A stretch of 14,573 nt of DNA from a virus (lineage: Duplodnaviria; Heunggongvirae; Uroviricota; Caudoviricetes): IMG/VR virus record IMGVR_UViG_2645727715_000004. One strand, 5' to 3'. The number at the start of each line of letters is the position of its first letter. Position 1 is the first letter of the stretch. Position numbers and translations under genes: made by a program. Shown here piece by piece: positions 1 through 14,573 of this stretch. Below the pieces are notes generated by a model. It saw only the letters and a list, made by a program, of their open reading frames with translations, had not been told where the DNA came from and searched no databases.

Positions 1-320
1 ATATCCGGAGTAATCCATGCATCGTATAGACACGAAAACCGCGCAGAAGGATAAGTTCGGCGCGGGTAAGAACGGTTTTACCCGTGGTAACCCCCAGATC
101 GGCACGCCTGCCACCGATCTGGATGATGACTACTTTGACATGTTGCAGGAGGAGCTTTGCAGCGTTGTGGAGGCGTCCGGTGCCAGCCTGGAGAAGGGGC
201 GGCACGACCAGCTACTTACCGCGCTTCGCGCGCTGCTGTTAAGCCGCAAGAATCCGTTTGGCGATATCAAATCGGATGGCACGGTGAAAACGGCTCTCGA
301 AAACCTTGGTTTGGGAGAAG
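1..320. repeat. Left arm of a 320-bp perfect inverted repeat; carries the RBS and first 101 codons of the tail-fibre gene; outer end coincides with the window edge
   Basis: Reverse complement of 2194..2513 checked base by base at both ends and over 1..114; ORF-track translations at 17..445(+) and 1697..2497(-) are identical for 101 aa. Identity ends at 320/2194. Confidence 0.95.
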
Positions 321-1697: not shown

Positions 1698-2497
1698 CAG
1701 GCAGCCCTCACGATATAATTAAAGGCAATGTTACGAGGACGGTTTTCGTTTGCAGTTGGAACAATTCTTGAAGCATCAAGGCCAATCACTTTTGGGTAAA
1801 CAGCGCCATCTGTTCTTTCTGTCACCATACTTCTGATTAAGGAGAAATAACTATTGTTCGTTGAGGGGTTCAAAGGCACTACTGCCCCCTTAAACGAGCC
1901 TACTGATTCCCATATTGAATAATTTTCGGTGTTTACAGTCTTGAACTCACCATAGATATTACGTATGGCATCGCCCTGAGCGGATAATATTGCCCTCCCC
2001 GTATCCATACCACGTCCGTCATCCCAGCCACGAATAAACTCACCACGTAAATCAGGCAATTTATTTGTCGGGTAAGCCTTTGCCAGCTCCGGGTATTCTT
2101 CAGCAGAAAAAGCTGCTCCGTTGCATTTCAGCCAGCCTGTTGGCGGAGTGGCTGAAGGCCACGGAACAGGCACCCCAACAGGTAATGCAGAGCCTTCTCC
2201 CAAACCAAGGTTTTCGAGAGCCGTTTTCACCGTGCCATCCGATTTGATATCGCCAAACGGATTCTTGCGGCTTAACAGCAGCGCGCGAAGCGCGGTAAGT
2301 AGCTGGTCGTGCCGCCCCTTCTCCAGGCTGGCACCGGACGCCTCCACAACGCTGCAAAGCTCCTCCTGCAACATGTCAAAGTAGTCATCATCCAGATCGG
2401 TGGCAGGCGTGCCGATCTGGGGGTTACCACGGGTAAAACCGTTCTTACCCGCGCCGAACTTATCCTTCTGCGCGGTTTTCGTGTCTATACGATGCAT
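1697..2497 (-). CDS. Tail fibre protein (S-like), currently operon-linked orientation
   Basis: 266-aa ORF; constant N-terminus of 101 aa inside the repeat, then a [22 protein letters not shown] collar-like segment and C-terminal tip; start overlaps the gp48-like stop. Confidence 0.85.
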
Positions 2498-2513
2498 GGA
2501 TTACTCCGGATAT
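2194..2513. repeat. Right arm of the 320-bp inverted repeat; the operon-proximal tail-fibre 5' end plus the last 16 nt of the upstream gp48-like gene
   Basis: Exact reverse complement of 1..320; at 2514 it continues into gp48-like coding sequence that is unique in the window. Confidence 0.95.
2195..2220 (-). other. Candidate serine-invertase crossover site, right copy in inverted orientation
   Basis: Reverse complement of 2195..2220 is identical to 294..319. Confidence 0.55.
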
Positions 2514-3085
2514 TTAAAAATTACGTAGGTATGCGACGGGCAGAGTTTGTTAAGCACACATTCGACAACTGTGTCGCCCCAGATACGCAGTGCGGAATCA
2601 CAGGGATCGCCACATGTCATCCAGGTGGTGTTGGTGGCGGCTGGCATGTTGACCTGCCAGTAATACCGCCATTCAGGCGCGTTCACAGCGTCAGTACAGG
2701 CCGATGAGCAGGTGAACGTGCTTTTGTCGTATCGCGTGATGGTGGCATCTGGTCTGCCCAGGGCAGCAAGCTGTGCAAGATAAAAATCCTCGTTGATGCC
2801 GCCCGCCAGGTTAACCTTCGCATCCAGCCGTTGCTGACGCTGGCGAAGGGTCTGTGTCCCTGCGGGAATACATTCATCCGGCAGACCGCACAGACGCTCC
2901 CAGCGGTTTATCAGTTCAGTGGTGGTGCGCGGATCCAGCTCCCGCATCAGGGCATCCGCACGCTGATGAACGCGGGTTAATGACGGTGCCGCACCGGCAA
3001 TCGCCGGATCGCTGGCTGACCACGCCGGACCGGGGGGCAACAGTGCCGACAACAGACGGATGTAATCATCGTTTGTCACGTCCAT
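2501..3085 (-). CDS. Baseplate/tail protein, Mu gp48-like (P2 gpI-like family)
   Basis: 194-aa ORF in the conserved position between the J-like baseplate gene and the fibre; start overlaps the upstream gene's stop. Confidence 0.65.
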
Positions 3086-4134
3086 GAAATCGTCCCCAGT
3101 ACCGCCAGTTCATTTTTTGCAATGGAGATATTGTCTGCCGGTGCAAGCAACTGATGGCTGTATTCCCCGTTCGCACCGGAAATCGCCTCACTGATACGCG
3201 ATACCTTCAGTTCTCCCTGCGGATAACCATCACGCAGCAGGAACGAACGCAACTCCGCGGTGATGGCAGCCCGTATTTCCGGTGTGTCTGGCGTTACGCG
3301 GATATGAAAATCCACCGTATGCGCCACCGGCCTGAACACATACAAATCAGAGCCTGCCACCGGGGCCAGTGGCTCAATGTGTTGTCTTGCCGCCGTTTCC
3401 GTTGATTCTTCCGGAATGGGATTAATCAGGTCACTGCTGGCAATCATCACACCGACAGTTCCCGTTCCCATCCAGTGACGGTATGTCCATGCGCGGGTAA
3501 TGCCGGGCACTTCTTTAGCCCAGACGACATAGTCCCCGTCAGCCCCGCCCTGAGGCGTCCAGTAATACCGCTCAATGACGCGGGCGCGCCACGTTTCCAG
3601 ATCTTCAGTATCGAATCCGCCAGTCAGGGTATCTGCAACACCGGAAGACGGCAGACCATTCACCGGCGTGACCAGGATTAATGCCGTACCGTCGTCAGCG
3701 TTACCGACCGCGCCTGCACTTGAGCAAGTGATCGGCACGCGCAGGACACCACCGGAGCTGGTTGCATCAGCAGTTGCCGTGTATTGAACCAGGTCAGCGC
3801 GCTGAATCACGCTCCCGGCGGTCACCTTCAGGCCATCGCTGACACCTTCCCAGCGCATATACCCGCTGGCAGCCGTGGCCCCCTTGCGCGGACACCGTTT
3901 CATCGCAGCATGTCGCGCCAGCCAGGACGCATCGCACAGGTCAGGCAGCATGTTCATTGCCAGATAATCGATGTACCCGTAAACCGTATGCAGCGCCGCC
4001 GCATACACCTTTGCCCGCACGTCTTCATCCATGCGCCGGAGCGTGTCGCTGACGTCCAGCCTGGCGAATAAATCGTTACGGAGCATACTGATATTTTCTG
4101 CCAGCGTCGGGCGCTGAAATTCACTGTCCGCCAT
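3076..4134 (-). CDS. Baseplate J-like protein (Mu gp47-like)
   Basis: 352-aa ORF; size and position match the baseplate wedge J family in Mu-like tail modules. Confidence 0.75.
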
Positions 4135-4550
4135 GCGTTATCGCACTCCACAGATCATCAAAAGAAATCATTACCGGTCCGTCACGACGCCAGAGGGTGA
4201 TACTGTTACCCAGCTCATTAATCCCGGTGCGGCGGATATCCAGATCAATACGGGACACCACGCCGTCATCAGTCATCCATTGGAGGCATTCGCGGATATA
4301 CCCCCTTACTGTCTGCACCAGCTGATTGGTCAGTTTGCTGCGCTGAAGCAGCCACAGTCGGGAGCCGTAACGGTCATTCTGTCACCGCAGGCCAGGTATC
4401 CCCCCACCATCCCATCGGGACGTCGGCGTTGTCATCAGGCTCCGCCCGCCGCCAGGTAAACAGGGAAATCACCACGGCGCGGGTCAGCGGATCCAGCGGT
4501 GCGCTGGCGCAGGTGCGTTTACCGTTCACCGTCAGCCACAGTTCCATCAT
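4121..4550 (-). CDS. Baseplate protein, Mu gp46-like (gp25/GPW-like), interrupted by a frameshift near 4374..4382
   Basis: ATG at 4550 opens a 58-codon frame ending TGA at about 4376; the +1 frame continues (QNDRYGSRLWLLQRSKLTNQLVQTVRGY...) to the stop at 4121. Combined length about 143 aa matches the family. Confidence 0.55.
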
Positions 4551-5095
4551 GCCTCCATCGCTTTATCAGGTTTGTCGGTGTTACTGCCCTGACCGTTCTC
4601 TCTGTGACGATGCCCGTTATAGGCAAGCCGCATCGCTGACATGGTAGTGCCGCCGGAGTCGCACAGGTCTTTCACCTGTCCGGTCACTTCCAGGTCCATT
4701 TCAAAACGTGCTTCAGGTGCATTGCGAAACGTGATCGTTTTCCCTGCACCGTCCACCACGATCCCTTCCCGGGTCAGTGTCACGGACTGCCCCTGATCGT
4801 CATAGACAGCCACCTCCCCCGTCTGCAGCCCTTTCAGGCGGTAGCGCCGGTCCGACACCGTAACAACCACCGCATGAGAACGGTCGCCATCCGGAAACAA
4901 CACCACCGCTTCCGCACCGCTGTTTGCCCTTGCGGTAAAACCGTAGGGTTCAAGATGCTCAACCCTGGCTTTGGGTTCACCGGCAATCAGGGACACATCC
5001 ACGGTCTGACATTTCGTGGCGGCACTGATGCTTTTCACCACTGCCCGCCCAATCAGGCCGAGGAGTTGTCGCTGCATGGCTTCAATCGTCCTCAT
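4547..5095 (-). CDS. Baseplate assembly protein V-like / spike (Mu gp45-like)
   Basis: 182-aa ORF; start overlaps the P-like stop (ATGA); size and position fit the gpV family. Confidence 0.75.
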   Translation of the reverse strand: MRTIEAMQRQLLGLIGRAVVKSISAATKCQTVDVSLIAGEPKARVEHLEPYGFTARANSGAEAVVLFPDGDRSHAVVVTVSDRRYRLKGLQTGEVAVYDDQGQSVTLTREGIVVDGAGKTITFRNAPEARFEMDLEVTGQVKDLCDSGGTTMSAMRLAYNGHRHRENGQGSNTDKPDKAMEA

Positions 5096-6174
5096 CAGAA
5101 CGGGTCCTCCTGTACTCTGGCTTTTTTCTTTTTCCGCGCACCGGGATCTTCGGGTTCAGGCAGATAAGCATCAGGCGGGCCGACACGGATTTCCGTCAGG
5201 GTGCCGTTCTGGTCCTGAGTAAACGTGACTTCCGAGACAAGCAGTTCGGTATTGTCGAAACCACAGACCGGATCGAAGACAATCACCCGCTGGTTGGGCT
5301 GCCACAGCGTACCGTTACCCTGTCGCCAGCCCTGCACCACATAGGTGGTTTCATCCGTCCGCGCCGCCCGTTGTCGGGCTTCAAAGTCAGCACGGGCAAT
5401 ACAGCCTGCCCCCGTGGCCTGCCCTGTCTGCCTGATATACATCGGACGGTAACGGGCAATAAATGCGTCCTCTGTGCGGGCCCGCAGCGCGGTGGTGGTG
5501 GCCTCACCGAAATCATCGTCGTTTCCGGCACGCTGCCCCGCCACCTGGTAAACAGAAAACCGCTCCCGGATACTCTTCTCCGTATCGCAGGAAAGGATGT
5601 TTTCCCCAAGTACCAGCGCGGTATGTGCCCGCGTTGAGCCAATACCGCCAATCACCAGCCTGCCGTGCGGGTCGTCGTAAGCCAGCGCCTGCTGCTGACC
5701 GAGTATTTTGTTGATCACCTCAATCACCGTTTCACCGTGATCAGGCTGGACATCAGGAATAACACCAGACGGCGCACCGCTGTTCACCACCTCAATGCCG
5801 AAAGGCGCAGCAAGCGCCTGCGCAATCTGAACCAGCGATCGTCCGTTAAACTGTGTCGGTTCGGCTGCACAGTCAATCAGGTCAGCGGTCAGACTACGCC
5901 CAGCAATACCGGTGCTGACCGAACGGGCATCGTAACGAACGGGAGTCGCCTCCACCCAGCCGGTGATCACCAGCTCATCACCAATCAGCACTTCCACTTT
6001 TGAACCGTTTTTAATACGCGGCTGAAGCGTGGTGATACCCTCATCTCCCGGCCACTGGCGGGTGATCTCCACACTGAAATCCCGCGTCAGCCGTTCAATA
6101 CCGGCACCGATGCGCACCGATGTCCAGCCATTCCACTCCCGGCCATTTACCCGTAGCGTGACGTTATCATTCAT
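5095..6174 (-). CDS. Tail protein, Mu P-like (P2 gpD-like baseplate hub)
   Basis: 359-aa ORF, N-terminus MNDNVTLRVNGREWNGWTSVRIG typical of Mu P / gpD-like tail proteins; follows the N-like gene as in Mu. Confidence 0.75.
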   Translation of the reverse strand: MNDNVTLRVNGREWNGWTSVRIGAGIERLTRDFSVEITRQWPGDEGITTLQPRIKNGSKVEVLIGDELVITGWVEATPVRYDARSVSTGIAGRSLTADLIDCAAEPTQFNGRSLVQIAQALAAPFGIEVVNSGAPSGVIPDVQPDHGETVIEVINKILGQQQALAYDDPHGRLVIGGIGSTRAHTALVLGENILSCDTEKSIRERFSVYQVAGQRAGNDDDFGEATTTALRARTEDAFIARYRPMYIRQTGQATGAGCIARADFEARQRAARTDETTYVVQGWRQGNGTLWQPNQRVIVFDPVCGFDNTELLVSEVTFTQDQNGTLTEIRVGPPDAYLPEPEDPGARKKKKARVQEDPF

Positions 6175-7499
6175 AGCACTGGCACCTTCAGAGGGATCAC
6201 CGGCACAAAGCCGGGATGCGTAATGGCATTACGCCGGATAATGTCCGCGTCACGCGCCGCGTTATCAAACCAGGTCGCCGCCAGCACCAGCGCGGGTAAG
6301 ACCTCATCCGGCGTGCGCTGAATGATCCGTGCAGACTGTTCAAGGCGCGTGTTGATATCCGCATTCAGATCTGCTTTCACCCGGCGCAGCGCCAGAAACA
6401 GCGCATCACTGGTTGTACGGGACAACTCCTTATCAATTGCCGTATTCAGTGTGTCGCGAATGTCAGTCAGTTCTTCCCACGTCGGCAGGTCAACCGTGTT
6501 TTTCACCGCCGGTGCATTGTTCAGTGCCGGATGCGTGACGGAAGGCCAGCCGGTGCTCTGCGCGGGTGTTGTTGACTGCCCCACTGCGGCATTCTGCATC
6601 ACCGCGGAAATTGTTGGCGCAGGCAATCGGGTGATGGCATACGCCGCTTCGCTGATTGCGGTCGTACGAAGGGTGCTGGCAACCACGTTACGCTGCTGCG
6701 TTGCCGTGGCGGTGGTTTTACTGTCCGTTTTCCAGACGCCGCGCGGTTGCAGATCGCTGCCGAGGCTGACACCAGAAAGCGTTTTGATCATGGTGACCAG
6801 GTCGCTGGCGTTACCATAAAGGCGCTTCCCGGTACGCCACATTTTCTGCACCTGCTCAACGAAATTTTTTCCTGACGATGGCGGCGGCAGAAGTACCGAG
6901 ATATCCCCCTGCAACAGCCTGGCGGCATCCGATACGGCAGAATCCACCACTTTCATCGCATCAGAAACATACCCCAGCATTGTGCTGGCATTACCGATAA
7001 CGTCGTTCTGTACGAAACCCGCCACGCCATCGATACTGAAACCACTGAAGCTGTCACTGATGCAGTCATCCAGCGCAGAACAGGATGACATCAGCGTCTG
7101 CGCCGTCGCCGCGCCTGATGTGGGGTAAGAGAGTTCTCCCGCTTCGACAAACTTCAGGTCAAAGCGGACAATACGCCCTTCACTCTTCGATGTGCTGACC
7201 CGAACTTCCCCGTCAACACAGACTTTCAGCTCACCGTATGTCGGGTGGACAAGCATGCCGGGACCGGGTTTATTCAGCGCTTCAATCAGGCGATCGCGCT
7301 GGTCAAAGCAGTCATCTCCCACCACATAAGCCGTGATGGACGGGCGGAAAGTGATTTTCCCCAGGTCTTCGGTATAGGGTTTGTCGCGGTTCGGGTATTC
7401 GTGTGTTTCCACACGACGACCGGTTCCCGCACTTTCTTCTTCAACCTTAAACGGCACACCGCGAAATGACGCGTCCTGAAGTCTGTCTTTCCACGTCAT
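6171..7499 (-). CDS. DNA circularisation protein N-like (Mu gpN family)
   Basis: N-terminus MTWKDRLQDASFRGVPFKVEEES is characteristic of Mu N-like proteins. Start placed at the ATG at 7499 rather than the 7541 start of the ORF track, which would run into the terminator hairpin. Confidence 0.8.
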   Translation of the reverse strand: MTWKDRLQDASFRGVPFKVEEESAGTGRRVETHEYPNRDKPYTEDLGKITFRPSITAYVVGDDCFDQRDRLIEALNKPGPGMLVHPTYGELKVCVDGEVRVSTSKSEGRIVRFDLKFVEAGELSYPTSGAATAQTLMSSCSALDDCISDSFSGFSIDGVAGFVQNDVIGNASTMLGYVSDAMKVVDSAVSDAARLLQGDISVLLPPPSSGKNFVEQVQKMWRTGKRLYGNASDLVTMIKTLSGVSLGSDLQPRGVWKTDSKTTATATQQRNVVASTLRTTAISEAAYAITRLPAPTISAVMQNAAVGQSTTPAQSTGWPSVTHPALNNAPAVKNTVDLPTWEELTDIRDTLNTAIDKELSRTTSDALFLALRRVKADLNADINTRLEQSARIIQRTPDEVLPALVLAATWFDNAARDADIIRRNAITHPGFVPVIPLKVPVL

Positions 7500-7514
7500 A
7501 TAAACTCCGTACAT

Positions 7515-7536
7515 AAAAAATCCCACCGGAGTGGGA
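7515..7536 (-). terminator. Possible weak intrinsic terminator / attenuator between tape measure and N-like gene
   Basis: On the minus strand: 6-bp stem TCCCAC/GTGGGA with 4-nt loop, followed directly by TTTTTT (plus-strand A-run 7515..7520), in a 60-bp intergenic gap. Confidence 0.4.
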
Positions 7537-7559
7537 CTCATTAACAGATTAATTTTTCA

Positions 7560-9393
7560 TTACCTGCCAAAGCGCGTATAGCCAACATCATGGCTGACAT
7601 CAAAACCGCTGGATCGCGTTTCCATAACCCGCATACCCGGAGGCGAATTCACAAAAGAGACCTTGATCTCACCATCAACTTTTGGCGCAGAAGCTTTGTT
7701 AATCATGAAGGGATTCGGGCCTGTGGCATCGGAGGCGTTGTTTGATTGAGCCGGATCTACCGCCGGATAAGGTGTGTATCCCCGCGCCGGTATTCCCGTC
7801 CCATAAGCATCATAAGCACCCGCGCCCCACTGCGCAGAGTTAATGGCATCGACCGTGTCACCGGAACTGTCGGTAAACCACTCAATAATTGGCTTCAGCT
7901 TGTCCCACATATCCTGAAACCACTTAACAACCGGTCCCCAGTTATTGATCACTATCCCCAGCGGCGACCAGGCAAAAACCTTCTTAAGAAGTTCCCAGCC
8001 AGCCTCAAAATAAGGACCAATGGTTTCCCAGAGTTTCTTAAAATAAGGTCCGACAACATCCCAGTTAGTGATAATTAATCCCGCAGCCAGGCTATCGCCG
8101 TCGCAATCATGCCAATCGGCGTCATCGACATAATCCTGCTGACAATACTGATGGCACCGCCAACGCCCATCAATCCCAGTTTCAGAATCGCAAGACCGGC
8201 AGCAAGCCCGACGACGCCGCGAATAACCCGGGGATTTTCATCCGCAAACTTCGTGAATTTTTCCCCTAACTCCCCCAGCCATTGCGTGATATTTTTGGCG
8301 TCACCAGAAAATGCGCCGCCAATAGCCGCAAGGCCGTTAGTTGCGGTCCCCGTCATTGCCTCCCACAGGTTGGACAGCGTTCCAAGCTGGGCCTGAACAC
8401 GTTTATTCAGGCTGGCCTGTTTATTCATCTTCTGCTGGATCTGATCGTAGCCATCCTTTCCTTTATCGATTAGTGCATTGACCACCTGAAGGGTTTCGGC
8501 ATCATCACCAAATATTGCCTTAAGTACACCTGTTCGCTTAACGTCTGTCAGTTTTCGCAGCTTTGCCAGTTGCTTAAACATGTTATCAAGACCGCCAAAA
8601 CTCCCTTTGCCGTCAGTAAAATCGAGCTGCACTCCGAGTTTCTGGCGGGCCATGACTTTATTGACGTCCCTGATTTTCTTAACGCTTAATCCGGACTGGA
8701 TAACTTTTCGCAGGGCATTACCTGCCGACTCCCCGTTCATCCCCATCTGATCCATCATGACGCTGATAGGGGCAAGGCTCTGTGCAGCCTGAAGTCCGTC
8801 CTTATTCACCATCTTCAGAACAGAACTGGTTTTAGTGAAGAAGGACAACATGTTGGTATCGTCAACGCCCAGATAAAACGCCTTCTGGATAGTGTCGAAC
8901 AGCCCCATCATGTCTTCTGACGCCGTTCCGGTAGCATCCTGCATCTTTGCAGCAAACTCAGCAGCCGCTTCCGGTGTTTTTTTCAGTTGTACCGCAAGAT
9001 AAGCTGTCGCTTTACCCACACCACCAAGAATGTTTTCTGCCGGGATCCCTGACGCACCAGCATCTGCATCATGTTCTGGAAATCAGCCGTTGTACCGGGT
9101 AGCTGGTTACCCAGGCCAATAGCCAGTTTATTGATGTCCTGAAAGCTCTTTCCAACCTCGCCGTTCGCATCCATCATAGCGACTTTCAGCCCGGTGGCGG
9201 CGTTTTCCTGATCAGCATAAGATTTCAGGGAAAGCGTCAGACCCGCTGCCAGTCCGCCACCAAGCGCCAGCCCACCCTGTGACGCTTCTTCCGCCTGGCG
9301 TTTAAATCCCCGGATTTTCTTTTGCATTTTCGACAGCGCGGGAGAAAGCCTGTCGACACCGGTGATCAACGCCTTAAGCTCAAATTCAGCCAT
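7560..9393 (-). CDS. Tail tape measure protein, interrupted by two apparent 1-nt deletions (about 9042..9054 and 8071..8080)
   Basis: Three consecutive minus-strand ORFs (8983..9393, 8075..9019, 7560..7952) form one roughly 612-codon reading frame if one base is restored at each junction (VRQG|IPAENILGG and WLRD|LIITNW). Shows the hydrophobic segment and W-rich C-terminal repeats typical of tape measure proteins. Confidence 0.7.
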
Positions 9394-9804
9394 GTGTGCG
9401 TTTCTCCTGCTCTATCCTGTTTGCCTGACTGACCAGCAAGGGAATTTCACTGATCGGCATATTCAGCAATTCGAAGGGATTAATGCGCCAGTAGCTGGCG
9501 CAGTCAAAGAAGCGATCAGTGAGGTATTCAGCCGTCAGGCCTGGAGGAAAAAACCAGCCACAAGCCACGCCGCTGCATTCAGGTCTGCCGGAGACATCTG
9601 GTCGACAGAGCTTTGCGGCACTTTCGCCAGCCGCACAATGTATTTCGACACCACATGCGCCAGAAGTCTGACGGACTCATCCTGATTCATCTGGTAGGGA
9701 TACCCCAGCTCGCGGACATCCTTCCCGGTGGGCTCATCAAACTCCAGTACGGAGAGTGTCTCACCATGAGCGATAATCGGTTTCTTTAACTCAAGCTCTT
9801 TCAT
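9386..9804 (-). CDS. Tail assembly chaperone frameshift fusion product (gpGT / gpE+E' analogue) made by programmed -1 ribosomal frameshift
   Basis: The -1 frame ORF 9386..9568 overlaps the 3' end of the chaperone ORF and ends 8 nt inside the tape measure start; slippery heptamer T_TTT_TTC lies in the overlap. Confidence 0.65.
9535..9804 (-). CDS. Tail assembly chaperone (lambda gpG / P2 gpE analogue)
   Basis: 89-aa ORF between tube and tape measure genes; carries the slippery site at its 3' end. Confidence 0.75.
   Translation of the reverse strand: MKELELKKPIIAHGETLSVLEFDEPTGKDVRELGYPYQMNQDESVRLLAHVVSKYIVRLAKVPQSSVDQMSPADLNAAAWLVAGFFLQA
9547..9553 (-). other. Slippery heptamer T TTT TTC for the programmed -1 frameshift
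   Basis: Minus-strand codons GGT TTT TTC in the zero frame; plus-strand gaaaaaa at 9547..9553. Confidence 0.6.
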
Positions 9805-10160
9805 TACTGGTAATCCCCTTCTTCACCGTGGAACTCAAGATCAACCGTGCCTTCTTCGGCATTATGGTTCGCTTCTCCGTGCAGCCAGGCGGACGACAAT
9901 ACATAGACCTGACCGTTCGCCAGCTCGGCAGTGATAGTCATCTCATCAGACGAGGTGATTTTGTTCACCGGAAAATTCTTCGGCACCTTGAAAGTCCCTT
10001 TGACATAAGGCGCACGGTGAGTTTCCTTGCGGTCCACTGAACCGTCCAGGCCGATGATGTCATCATTGACCGTCCTGTTCATGGGCACCTCAATGCCGCC
10101 GGTCAGCGATAGCTGTTGACCGTCAATTTTGAAATAACAGGTTCCCCCGATACGGGCCAT
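9804..10160 (-). CDS. Tail tube protein (Mu gpM-like)
   Basis: 118-aa ORF immediately downstream of the sheath gene, start overlapping the sheath stop. Confidence 0.75.
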   Translation of the reverse strand: MARIGGTCYFKIDGQQLSLTGGIEVPMNRTVNDDIIGLDGSVDRKETHRAPYVKGTFKVPKNFPVNKITSSDEMTITAELANGQVYVLSSAWLHGEANHNAEEGTVDLEFHGEEGDYQ

Positions 10161-11656
10161 TATGCAGACTCCTCTGAATACTGAAGACGGAACTGGTTAA
10201 CCACGGCAAAGACACGCAACTGGTTAACATAGTCAGGCGGGAACAGCGTGTTCAGGCGGTTCGGATCGCTGGCATCACGCTCCACAACCAGGTACTGCTT
10301 AAACAGTTCGTAGTTTTCCACGATCCCCGCACGCTCAAGCTGACGGTAGGTTGCCAGCAGTTCCCCTTTGATCACCGCCGGTGTGACAATCGCCTGACCG
10401 GGACCAAAGCGGGTACCGTCGCTGGCAAGCTTGTGACGCCCGTACTTACTGGTAATGACGGATTTCAGTTTGCGCAGTACATACGCGCTGGTATGCAGCG
10501 TCTCGCTGTCGAGGTAGCTGTTATCCGCAACACCGTAAGCGTTTTTCCTGTACGTGGTGACATCACGCTGAATGCGCAGCACCCCGCTTTCGACATACGC
10601 CGTTGCCACGCCATGAGACAGCAGGGTCTGTTGTTCGGTCATCGTGAACCGTTTCCCCTTCGGCGCAGGCAGCATACCCACCAGTTCACCGGTCTGCGTG
10701 GGACGTGCCGGATCGTTGCGAATAAACACCGCTGCGCGGGCGGTACGGCTTGCCGCCAGCTCGTCGGCAGGCGTCTGGGTCTCTTTTTCGTATCCCGCCA
10801 GGGTAATGTGCTGCTGGTTAAACTGGTCACCTGCGGTCACCAGTTCTGACAGCGTGCCGGTCTTTGCCGTATACACATGACCATACAGCTGACGCGCATA
10901 GCTCCAGCGACCGCTGGTATCGTTCATCTCGGTCACCAGCGTGTTAACGGAGGCCGTGTCGTTGAACGGCAGGCCGATATAATCAAACGGCTCATCCGCC
11001 ATTGCAGCCACCGCGCCGGTGAGAACCGGAGCGCCCGTTCCGGCGATCCCCGTCGCCACGGCAATCTGTACGCCCGCTGGCAGCACTTCGCCCCCACCAA
11101 AGCCGTAGTAATTGAGGCTGACAGGAATTTCATTCCCGCAAAGCCCCTTATGACGCGCGGTCAGTGTGACCACGCCTGCCGAAGATGAGGCAGTAAACGG
11201 CAGGGTCGGAACGGCATTGATGGCATCTTTGATACTGCTGGCAATCGTCGCGACGTTATCGCCGTTGGTCACCGGTGCCTGCACGCGGGTACGTCCCACA
11301 TAAACATTCACCGTGCCGGTTTCGGTTGCCGCGCCGGTCACCGTCAGCGTAACTGTTGCCGCCGCGCCCGTGGATTCAGGAACGGCAATCACATACAGTT
11401 CACCAAACGGGTCGGTCTGGCGATAAGCCTCGACCATACGCGCCAGCTGACTTCCCGCACCACAAATCTGGCGTGCATAGTCTGCCGATGGCATCAGCAC
11501 CAGACTGTTGGCAACAATCTCTGCACCGTTATTGGCATGACCAATCAGCAGCGATGCTCCGCTGTCCTGTGCAGTATTCGCCGCCGAGTTATCCATTTCC
11601 GCATAAAAAATCGGAACCAGCGTATTCGACGGAATGGTGTTAAAGCTTATCGTCAT
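10160..11656 (-). CDS. Contractile tail sheath protein (Mu gpL-like)
   Basis: 498-aa ORF, N-terminus MTISFNTIPSNTLVPIFYAEMDNS typical of Mu-like sheath proteins; followed by tube and chaperone genes. Confidence 0.85.
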   Translation of the reverse strand: MTISFNTIPSNTLVPIFYAEMDNSAANTAQDSGASLLIGHANNGAEIVANSLVLMPSADYARQICGAGSQLARMVEAYRQTDPFGELYVIAVPESTGAAATVTLTVTGAATETGTVNVYVGRTRVQAPVTNGDNVATIASSIKDAINAVPTLPFTASSSAGVVTLTARHKGLCGNEIPVSLNYYGFGGGEVLPAGVQIAVATGIAGTGAPVLTGAVAAMADEPFDYIGLPFNDTASVNTLVTEMNDTSGRWSYARQLYGHVYTAKTGTLSELVTAGDQFNQQHITLAGYEKETQTPADELAASRTARAAVFIRNDPARPTQTGELVGMLPAPKGKRFTMTEQQTLLSHGVATAYVESGVLRIQRDVTTYRKNAYGVADNSYLDSETLHTSAYVLRKLKSVITSKYGRHKLASDGTRFGPGQAIVTPAVIKGELLATYRQLERAGIVENYELFKQYLVVERDASDPNRLNTLFPPDYVNQLRVFAVVNQFRLQYSEESA

Positions 11657-11810
11657 CGGTATTCACCTTTTCATTCACGCGCCGGATATCACCCGCTGCT
11701 TCACGGCGCAGCCAGTAGTTGTTCTCATCAACATTTCGCCCCTCGGCGGGCAAAAGGTCGCCGCGGGCAGGGTCAGGCACTGACCGCCCTTTAACAGGTT
11801 TCACAAACAT
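11640..11810 (-). CDS. Small ORF (56 aa) upstream of and overlapping the sheath start; not in the supplied ORF track
   Basis: Hand translation: ATG at 11810 nine nt after the preceding gene's stop, MFVKPVKGRSVPDPARGDLLPAEGRNVDENNYWLRREAAGDIRRVNEKVNTDDDKL, stop TAA 11640..11642. Fills the otherwise empty 160-bp gap. Confidence 0.45.
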   Translation of the reverse strand: MFVKPVKGRSVPDPARGDLLPAEGRNVDENNYWLRREAAGDIRRVNEKVNTDDDKL

Positions 11811-11818
11811 GAAGATTC

Positions 11819-12379
11819 TCAGGAAGGAAGGGTTATTTCGGTGTGATGTTCGATATCGCCGTCAGGCCCGTTACCGGGATCGAGATAATCAACATCAATC
11901 GCCAGCGTTCGCAGTTCATCCAGACTGTTCAGGTCATCCTGCTGGCGGGTATCGTCTTCGGTCAGCTCGCTGATGACCGAAAAATCGAACTGATAAATCA
12001 GCTCATGACGATTCAGATCCAGCAGCGTGCCGCCGTCATAGGTAATCGGGTTACCGCACGCTTCCGGGTTCCAGCCCAGCAGGGCCTTAAAGAGCATCTG
12101 CCGGACATCGTCCACCACATCATACGAAGCAAACTGACCGCGCTCATCACGCCCGTTACTCAGTATGACAACCACGGAGAAGCCCTCTTTCAGCTCCTGC
12201 CAGTAGTCGGTCTGGCTTTTGTTTTCTCCCGGAGAATCATCACCCGGTACAACATATGCCGCCGGGAGTTTCAGCTTTCCGACCTCCGGCAGATTTTTGA
12301 ACTGGGCCGCGCCTGCAACCCGGTTTTCAAAATACGGACAGCGGGCACGCAGTGCAGCAATAACAGGCGTCAGTTTCAT
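11819..12379 (-). CDS. Putative neck / tail-completion (tail terminator-like) protein
   Basis: 186-aa ORF between the gp10-like neck gene and the sheath; function assigned by position only. Confidence 0.45.
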   Translation of the reverse strand: MKLTPVIAALRARCPYFENRVAGAAQFKNLPEVGKLKLPAAYVVPGDDSPGENKSQTDYWQELKEGFSVVVILSNGRDERGQFASYDVVDDVRQMLFKALLGWNPEACGNPITYDGGTLLDLNRHELIYQFDFSVISELTEDDTRQQDDLNSLDELRTLAIDVDYLDPGNGPDGDIEHHTEITLPS

Positions 12380-12881
12380 CTGTGTCGTCGCTCCGGCTTC
12401 AGTGATTTACGCAATTCCCGCGCCAGAAAATAGCGTGTCCAGCTGCGGTTCTTTTCAAGCGTTTCCACCATGAAGTTATTACGTGGAGCCAGTCGCCAGC
12501 CGCTGCCACCGGATGCACCACGATGATGGCTGCGACGACGCTTTGCCCCTCGCCTCACGCCATAGAACAAAAAAGCCGGATAAAAATCACCGGTGATACG
12601 GCGGTTTCCCTCTCCATTACGCTGGTTAGGGGCTATACGTGCCATAAAACCAGGGCGATGTTTACTGGCTCTGGGTACCATGTAACCAATCGAACGAGCC
12701 AGGCGTCCGGTCTGATAACCGGGGTTTTCACCCGGTGCCGACCGCGCACGGCGCATCACCAGCGACGGGCATCACGCATATGACGCTGACCAATCGTGAC
12801 AAACGCCCGCCGGACACGGGCGCGGTTAAAGCGCATCTCCGCGGGCTGCTGAAAATCAACGTGCAAAAAGGAAGTCGTCAT
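12376..12881 (-). CDS. HK97 gp10-family head-tail joining protein, interrupted by an apparent 1-nt deletion near 12757..12766
   Basis: ATG at 12881 gives MTTSFLHVDFQQPAEMRFNRARVRRAFVTIGQRHMRDARRW then stop; the -1 frame continues as VMRRARSAPGENPGYQTGRLARS... to 12376. Restoring one base makes one roughly 168-aa protein. Confidence 0.55.
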
Positions 12882-13266
12882 TGTTGCCTCCGTGACTCTG
12901 CCCACATTCGCCCAGCTCCGTACACTCCAGCAGCAGAAAGCGCCGCGCCCCGTTCAGATCGCGCTGACGTTTCACCCGGTACACACTGTCACCGCAGACC
13001 ACCTCATAATCAGCGGTGATCCCCCGGCGGTAACGAATGGTGATGTAATGGGTGATGGCGTCCCCGGTCTGCGCGGTTTCCTGCCAGGTGGTGGCACTGG
13101 TCTGGATAACCTTCGCCCATGTCCGGAACGTAACCGGGTATTGAGGCTCCACGCCAAAGTTATCCGCGGGCATATCCACCCGCTGGCGGATCAGGACGCG
13201 TTTATTCAGTTCACCGGGGTCCGGCAGAATGTAGGTTGCGCTGGTCTGCGCCTGACGAATTTTCAT
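12856..13266 (-). CDS. Head closure / head-tail adaptor protein
   Basis: 136-aa ORF following the connector gene with overlapping start/stop; size and position fit. Confidence 0.6.
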   Translation of the reverse strand: MKIRQAQTSATYILPDPGELNKRVLIRQRVDMPADNFGVEPQYPVTFRTWAKVIQTSATTWQETAQTGDAITHYITIRYRRGITADYEVVCGDSVYRVKRQRDLNGARRFLLLECTELGECGQSHGGNNDDFLFAR

Positions 13267-13586
13267 TGCGGAAAGTACCTGTACGGGCCGACAAGCCAGC
13301 CAAAACTCTGCGGCATGTCGAGTTTCTCCACTTCCGTAACCGACGAGCGGTTTTCGTAAAAATGGCTGATAAGCATCAGCATCCCCAGACGAATATCATC
13401 CGGCAGGTGCAGCCCGTCCGGATCGCTGTCCGGAATGGTTTCATCCGGTGCATAGAGCTTCCGGTTCAGATACGTTTCCGTCCGCTTTTGTGCCGCACAG
13501 GCCAGCAGTTGCAGATGGCGGTCATCAGCATCGAAATCCTCATCCAGCCGGAGTTGGGCTTTAATCTCTTCCATTGTCAGAAGCAT
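13263..13586 (-). CDS. Head-tail connector protein (HK97 gp6-like)
   Basis: 107-aa acidic ORF, MLLTMEEIKAQLRLDEDFDADDRHLQLL..., typical of gp6-like connector proteins; conserved position after the capsid gene. Confidence 0.65.
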   Translation of the reverse strand: MLLTMEEIKAQLRLDEDFDADDRHLQLLACAAQKRTETYLNRKLYAPDETIPDSDPDGLHLPDDIRLGMLMLISHFYENRSSVTEVEKLDMPQSFGWLVGPYRYFPQ

Positions 13587-13588
13587 AC

Positions 13589-13789
13589 TCAGCCCTCTTT
13601 ACTGGTCGTGGCTTTTTTCTCTTTTGCCGCTTTACTGCTTTTTGCACTGATTCCGCGCTCTGCTAACCCGGCCTGAAGTGCAATCTCCTGCACCCGGGCA
13701 GGAAGCGCCCCGTCGTCATACTCACCGGCCCGAATGACCTCAACACGCATACCGTCCGGTGACCATTTCAGATCTTGTTTCAGGATCAT
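13589..13789 (-). CDS. Hypothetical small phage protein (66 aa, lysine-rich C-terminus)
   Basis: ORF with SD-like GGTGAAG upstream of ATG at 13789; sits between capsid and connector genes. Confidence 0.45.
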   Translation of the reverse strand: MILKQDLKWSPDGMRVEVIRAGEYDDGALPARVQEIALQAGLAERGISAKSSKAAKEKKATTSKEG

Positions 13790-13811
13790 GATTCTTCACC
13801 CGTCAGAACAG

Positions 13812-13831
13812 GGGGCGCGGTTCCGCGCCCC
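13812..13831 (-). terminator. GC-rich hairpin just after the major capsid gene; possible attenuator or RNA-stability element
   Basis: 9-bp GC stem GGGGCGCGG/CCGCGCCCC (13812..13820 / 13823..13831) in the 49-bp gap after the capsid stop; no clear U-tract on the minus strand. Confidence 0.35.
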
Positions 13832-13838
13832 TGAGTGA

Positions 13839-14573
13839 TTACGCCGCTGCAATCTTCAGCAGTTTGATGGCCTGCGAATCGACCAGCATCCCGCCGGTGC
13901 GCTTGGTGGTATAAAAACCGACAAACGGTTTATTGGTGTACGGGTCACGCAGAATGCGGGTGCCGATACGGTCAACGATGGTGTAACCCCGTTTGAAGTT
14001 ACCAAATGCAATGGCTTTCGCATCAGCGGCGATATCCGGCATCTGTTCGTTTTCAGCGATACCGTAACCCGCCAGAGAGGACGGCTGCCCCAGTTCCAGC
14101 CCCGGACGCCACAGATAGTTACCCTCGGTGTCTTTCAGCAGACGGATGGCAAACAGGCTGTTGTTGTTCATCATGAACTTCGCGCCAGTGCGGTGTGCCT
14201 TACGCAGCGTGTAAATCAGTTTGATAATGGCGTCTGCGGTCACCGCGGTCGCTTCGCCGGATACAATATGCTGAAGTTTGCCGAACGCCCGGACCTTATC
14301 GGTTTCATCAGTAGATTCATACGCCAGGAACCCTTTTGGCTTCTTGGTACCATCGCCGGTGGTAAAGGCAATTTCTTCCTGTTCGGCAAATTCGGTCGCC
14401 AGCTCGCTGTTGATCCAGGCCTCCACGTTGAAGAAGGCATCGTCCAGCATTTTCTGGGTAGCCTGCGGGTTGCCGTAGATTTCCCCCATGAGAGGTTCAA
14501 TCAGCTCCAGTCTGGAGGTGGCAGTCTGGGATCGCGTATCCGTTACCCCCACCCATCCGGAAGCCGTACCGCC
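13839..14573 (-). CDS. Major capsid protein, HK97 family (5'-truncated; continues beyond the right edge)
   Basis: C-terminal region shows the GNFKRGYTIVDR and RILRDPYT type motifs of HK97-fold capsid proteins; the frame stays open upstream of the listed M to base 14573. Confidence 0.85.
   Translation of the reverse strand, partial: GGTASGWVGVTDTRSQTATSRLELIEPLMGEIYGNPQATQKMLDDAFFNVEAWINSELATEFAEQEEIAFTTGDGTKKPKGFLAYESTDETDKVRAFGKLQHIVSGEATAVTADAIIKLIYTLRKAHRTGAKFMMNNNSLFAIRLLKDTEGNYLWRPGLELGQPSSLAGYGIAENEQMPDIAADAKAIAFGNFKRGYTIVDRIGTRILRDPYTNKPFVGFYTTKRTGGMLVDSQAIKLLKIAAA

Follow-up and report, generated by a model that had tools for sequence, protein, structure and literature searches.

An extra base splits the Mu gp46-type baseplate wedge gene of an Escherichia coli D92/09 prophage contig and is most likely a sequencing artefact

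In phage Mu, six copies of gp46 (wedge protein 1) are placed on the tube initiator gp43, and the two-stranded beta-sheet of gp46 together with the arms of the first sheath ring starts the sheath assembly (PMC11915804). As for the Ion Torrent PGM platform, its errors are known to be mostly indels, with substitutions about 10-fold rarer. Homopolymers of at least 2 bases mainly suffer deletions, C/G deletions make up most of the high-frequency and strand-asymmetric indel errors, and the "high frequency indel" errors, which amount to about 1 per kb of reference, lead to frameshifts in assemblies (Bragg et al. 2013, PMC3623719). The window that we have analysed is a stretch of 14,573 nt that makes up the whole of LEKZ01000190.1, a contig from the draft genome of E. 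coli D92/09 (GCA_001038025.1).

This genome was sequenced on a PGM 314 chip, giving 399,241 reads, 16.5x coverage and 343 contigs, and was annotated with 5,893 CDS in 5,079,894 bp (PMC4588619). The density is thus 1.16 CDS/kb, compared with ~0.98 annotated features/kb in three complete E. coli records, where the CDS count is a rough proxy for the genome-wide indel rate of D92/09 because annotation pipelines differ. The ~900 excess CDS, or ~1 break per 5–6 kb, fits a widespread splitting of genes, though RAST usually calls more CDS than PGAP and the excess is a rough indicator only.

The locus is set in the structural module of a temperate phage that resembles SfI, SfII and SfV and has a Mu-type contractile tail; this phage is a prophage of E. 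coli D92/09. According to Pfam, the genes are ordered as GpP-like, Phage_Mu_Gp45, GP46, Baseplate_J and Phage_Mu_Gp48, the same as in the relatives, and this is the Mu-type baseplate order gp44-gp45-gp46-gp47-gp48. The start of the nearby gp43-like gene (DNA circularisation / tube initiator, 6171–7541, minus strand) is annotated inconsistently: the longest ORF has 456 aa, as in SfII, while PGAP and the contig's gene caller give 442 aa.

Further features are found elsewhere in the window. The tail assembly chaperone gene (9386–9568 and 9535–9804, minus strand) ends with ...GCT GGT TTT TTC CTC CAG GCC TGA and carries the canonical -1 slippery heptamer T TTT TTC at 9553–9547 on the minus strand; a 60-aa ORF in its -1 frame reaches the start of the tape measure gene. 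Judged from the sequence, this heptamer looks like the conserved programmed frameshift of the lambda G/GT type, namely a genuine recoding site. There is also a perfect inverted repeat of 320 nt (100%) between window positions 1–320 and 2194–2513. The relatives have this 320-nt piece once, covering both the beginning of the tail-fibre gene and the last part of the gp48-like gene, and next door they have a Pin/Gin-type invertase. At its end, the contig appears to run through the invertible tail-fibre segment in the other orientation, which suggests that both orientations of the segment were present in the sequenced culture.

As to the identity of the broken gene, the deposited sequence gives two pieces with consecutive matches to Pfam PF07409 (GP46): the 58-aa piece covers model positions 1–36 with 35.9 bits, and the 86-aa piece covers positions 37–100 with 69.2 bits. 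Since the pieces match consecutive parts of one domain, they are the two halves of a gene rather than a chance pair of ORFs. When the gene is repaired, its protein spans model positions 1–100 of 101 and scores 111.3 bits, well above the curated cut-off of 28.6. The repaired protein also matches PHROG 180 "baseplate wedge subunit" (E 1.9e-54) and PDB 9ki1 "Baseplate protein gp46" of Mu (E 6.9e-15). Thus the locus is a single gene for Mu gp46-type baseplate wedge protein 1, and the earlier description of it as a gp46-like baseplate gene holds, both by the family matches and by its place between the gp45-like and gp47-like genes.

In comparison with Mu gp46 itself, the likeness lies in the full-model family match, in the position between the gp45-like gene (spike) and the gp47-like gene (baseplate J), and in the length, the repaired protein having 141 aa and the solved chain of Mu gp46 145 aa. 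Unlike Mu gp46, the frame here is broken at 4383 as deposited, and the match between the two proteins is a distant one. The GP46 genes of the Shigella/E. coli phages SfI, SfII, SfIV and SfV and of E. coli prophages are much closer, with 97.8–98.9% DNA identity over 900 nt. They differ from the present gene only by the extra base and a few silent or conservative substitutions.

The deposited sequence does not hold one uninterrupted GP46 reading frame of ~140 aa, being split at 4374–4384 (Table 1). In the deposited sequence the gene measures 427 nt, against 426 nt in the relatives. An alternative start, ATG 4550, overlaps with the stop codon of the gp45-like gene; the upstream frame on the minus strand has 58 codons from ATG 4550 or 57 from ATG 4547. 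From ATG 4550 the product is MMELWLTVNG...GWWGDTWPAVTE. The inserted G pushes this frame into a TGA two codons further on, at 4376–4374. The TGA at 4384–4382, which bounds the other frame, is present only through the inserted G (T-[G]-A); past it, the downstream (+1) frame is open up to the stop at 4123–4121 on the minus strand. Its translation reads QNDRYGSRLWLL...THGGQ, also given as QNDRYGSRLWLLQRSKLT...THGGQ. The first start codon of this piece is GTG 4318, located 21 codons in, and none is found near its 5' limit. The two limits that the initial annotation had assigned to these frames, namely a TGA near 4376 for the frame from ATG 4550 and an open downstream frame reaching 4121, are therefore recovered. 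The split reading frame is most likely due to one spurious base.

Table 1. Positions of the GP46-family gene, its frame break and the other one-base indels, in window coordinates.
Feature	Position	Strand	Evidence or effect
GP46-family gene (Mu gp46 / baseplate wedge protein 1)	4121..4547	-	Pfam, PHROG and PDB matches
Premature TGA, upstream frame	4374..4376	-	two codons past the extra base: ..GCG GTG ACA GAA TGA
TGA, downstream frame	4382..4384	-	5' limit of the downstream open frame
Extra base	4383	-	G on the coding strand, C on the + strand; alignments with relatives
One-base deletion, GGG -> GG	8090-8092 (~8091)	-	breaks the tape measure gene; 0/911 E. coli records
One-base deletion, CCCC -> CCC	9047-9050 (~9049)	-	second break of the tape measure gene; 0/898 E. 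coli records
One-base deletion, CC -> C	12762-12763 (~12763)	-	breaks the 168-aa gene; 0/1,017 E. coli records

We have placed the extra base by alignment with the relatives. The coding strand reads GCGGT[G]ACAG here and GCGGTACAG in every relative; that is, the site is GCGGTGACAG with the extra base and GCGGTACAG without it. In the longer alignment, GCGGT[G]ACAGAATGA stands here against GCGGTACAGAATGAC in the relatives. The base has no identical neighbour on either side (GGT[G]ACA on the coding strand, TGT[C]ACC on the plus strand). The G6 run at 4405–4400 was considered as the place of the shift and rejected, since it has the same length in the relatives and the alignment puts the extra base at 4383. 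Based on these alignments, the locus is best described as one gene with one extra base, neither a 2-nt loss nor two genes. The initial annotation had left open an extra base or a 2-nt loss, and of these only the extra base stands, as the 427 and 426 nt lengths show; it had also put the frame change at 4374–4382, and the extra base itself is one position outside that range.

The extra base has been found in no other record. With a 901-nt query round the site, 900 nt were matched in every top match (1,113 E. coli records and phages), and all 12 matching phage records (SfI, SfII, SfIV, SfV and others) gave the match that is one base shorter. With an 81-nt query centred on the site, the base was present in 0 of 1,104 matching E. 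coli records, and the best E. coli match covered 80 of 81 bases (98.8%), i.e., the form without it. The E. coli records compared are the ~1,100 complete genomes that hold the segment. Similarly, the exact 33-mer spanning the insertion had no match in the GTDB representative genomes or in IMG/VR. At the protein level, the exact 57-aa product from ATG 4547 is on record only on LEKZ01000190.1 (GCA_001038025.1), and a look-up of the 58-aa product from ATG 4550 found no record. The relatives have a single annotated CDS of 426–429 nt at this place, named "phage GP46 family protein" or "baseplate wedge subunit".

The break in the GP46 gene is not the only one in the window. Compared with six relatives, the window shows four private one-base indels and no further frame-breaking difference; frameshifts apart, there are no large indels, nonsense codons or IS elements. 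Through the two deletions at ~8091 and ~9049, the tape measure gene falls into three ORFs; the third deletion breaks a 168-aa gene that sits between the head-closure and tail-terminator genes. We have further inspected ten loci that were reached through the exact gp43-like protein, and both GP46 (141 aa) and the tape measure protein (611 aa) are intact in all ten. The repaired proteins are familiar ones: GP46 without base 4383 is identical to WP_000424737.1 (141/141), the repaired 168-aa protein is identical to that of four relatives (168/168), and the repaired tape measure protein shares 608 of 611 residues with the SfII protein. The substitutions that the window does not share with the six relatives comprise 53 synonymous and 15 non-synonymous ones, a ratio which, as read from the sequences, indicates purifying selection rather than decay.

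The closest comparison is offered by L017 (GCA_966508645.1), an independent assembly of an isolate different from D92/09, which is 99.95% identical over 12,824 nt (window 1753–14573). The differences between the two are 2 substitutions, at 7746 and 14545, and 4 one-base indels, which are the same four as above. All four are frame-breaking, private to LEKZ01000190.1 and absent from L017. The substitution at 7746 (T here, C in L017) is synonymous and lies in the tape measure gene. The one at 14545 (A here, T in L017) causes a Glu-to-Val change in the major capsid protein; it is located beside a C5 run, at 29 nt from the end of the contig. Either of the two may also be a sequencing error.

Overall, since the contig comes from a 16.5x PGM draft and the insertion is one of four private one-base indels, base 4383 is most likely an error rather than a mutation. 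We infer that it is a sequencing or assembly artefact and that the real gene is intact, with a probability of roughly 0.88. The extra base would be a spurious consensus call in a low-coverage PGM assembly or, in Ion Torrent terms, an over-call of a flow whose true value is zero; the real phage gene would then be intact, reading ...PAVQNDRYGSRLWLL... and encoding 141 aa. This reading draws on direct observations: where the extra base lies, that the relatives lack it, the platform and its coverage, the three more indels and the near-identical intact relative. One-base indels in contexts to which the platform is prone outnumber the substitutions (4 vs 2 relative to L017), and the indel at 4383 is absent from L017, the ~1,100 E. 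coli genomes, the 12 phages, GTDB and IMG/VR, which include independent sequences of the same element. The coverage is too low for a PGM assembly to out-vote systematic indels. As with PGM indel errors, all four are single-base events: the insertion falls outside all homopolymers, at a zero-length position, and the three others are C/G deletions in runs of 2–4, with the genes frameshifted. Probably these three deletions are Ion Torrent artefacts of the kind proposed for 4383. The indel density is ~1 per 3 kb here, in an assembly of 16.5x. On the other hand, some points speak against the artefact: an insertion outside a homopolymer is a less typical error of flow sequencing, real prophages do acquire inactivating frameshifts, and the isolate behind L017 is another one, which leaves a mutation private to D92/09 some probability.

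The last two points lead to the alternative of a genuine frameshift mutation, found in D92/09 alone, by which baseplate wedge protein 1 is lost. We regard this as unlikely, though it is the one among the alternatives that deserves some weight. The extra base does stand in the deposited consensus, outside a homopolymer; prophage decay is common; and in the sequence alone, an error and a mutation of very recent origin look alike. Were the base real, no wedge protein would be available for the start of the sheath, and the result would be a tail-less defective prophage, which is common and unsurprising. If the other indels were real too, the tape measure and tail-completion proteins would also be lost, leaving a defective prophage unable to build tails. 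However, in E. coli mutation accumulation, indels are roughly ten-fold rarer than substitutions, while here 4 frame-breaking indels accompany 2 substitutions against a relative of 99.95% identity; at this ten-fold ratio, at least 4 indels among 6 events have p ~0.001. Moreover, no nonsense codon, IS element or deletion accompanies the frameshifts, the repaired proteins are identical to widespread ones, and the 53:15 ratio does not look like decay, whereas PGM sequencing at 16.5x is known for exactly such a pattern. The relaxed selection that a pseudogene in a decaying prophage should show has not been found. A decaying cryptic Shigella-type prophage was accordingly rejected as a candidate, given the pattern of purifying selection and the intact relative of 99.95% identity.

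It is also conceivable that the base is real and is bypassed by the ribosome, with a low-level +1 "savior" shift at GAA UGA C so that enough wedge protein is made. The product would read ...PAVTE-DRYGSRLWLL..., of wild-type length with QN changed to TE, and a mutated prophage tail gene would be kept partly functional. The site has some resemblance to the prfB frameshift, in that a zero-frame UGA is followed by C, the same stop context, and that the continuation is in the +1 frame; as the zero-frame stop lies only two codons past the insertion, a +1 shift at this stop would give back nearly all of the protein. The prfB frameshift depends on a Shine-Dalgarno-like stimulator ~3 nt upstream and on a P-site codon that is prone to shifting and can pair again in the +1 frame. 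Unlike prfB, the present site has no slippery P-site codon, as GAA cannot re-pair with AAU in the +1 frame, and no correctly spaced Shine-Dalgarno sequence, as the only G-rich run of this type (4405–4400) ends 20 nt upstream of GAA. Nor is the arrangement conserved in orthologues, occurring in 0 of 1,104 E. coli records and 0 of 12 phage records. A programmed +1 frameshift was thus rejected for its unconserved arrangement and the absent site features, and the bypass, which in addition presupposes a real base, is highly improbable. Even less credible are two independent small genes, of 57 aa and about 65–86 aa. Both pieces do figure in the ORF list, but they are consecutive parts of one Pfam domain (1–36 and 37–100), and the downstream piece lacks a start near its 5' limit. 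The initial annotation had raised the possibility of two small genes in orthologues; every relative inspected instead carries one continuous gene of 141–142 aa. The two-gene reading is refuted by the orthologues and the split Pfam match.

With a sequencing or assembly artefact as the preferred reading, the finding matters for data quality only. The frameshifts of this contig should not be taken as pseudogenes, as signs of defective prophages or as recoding sites, and the same caution probably applies to the whole D92/09 draft (5,893 CDS in 5.08 Mb).
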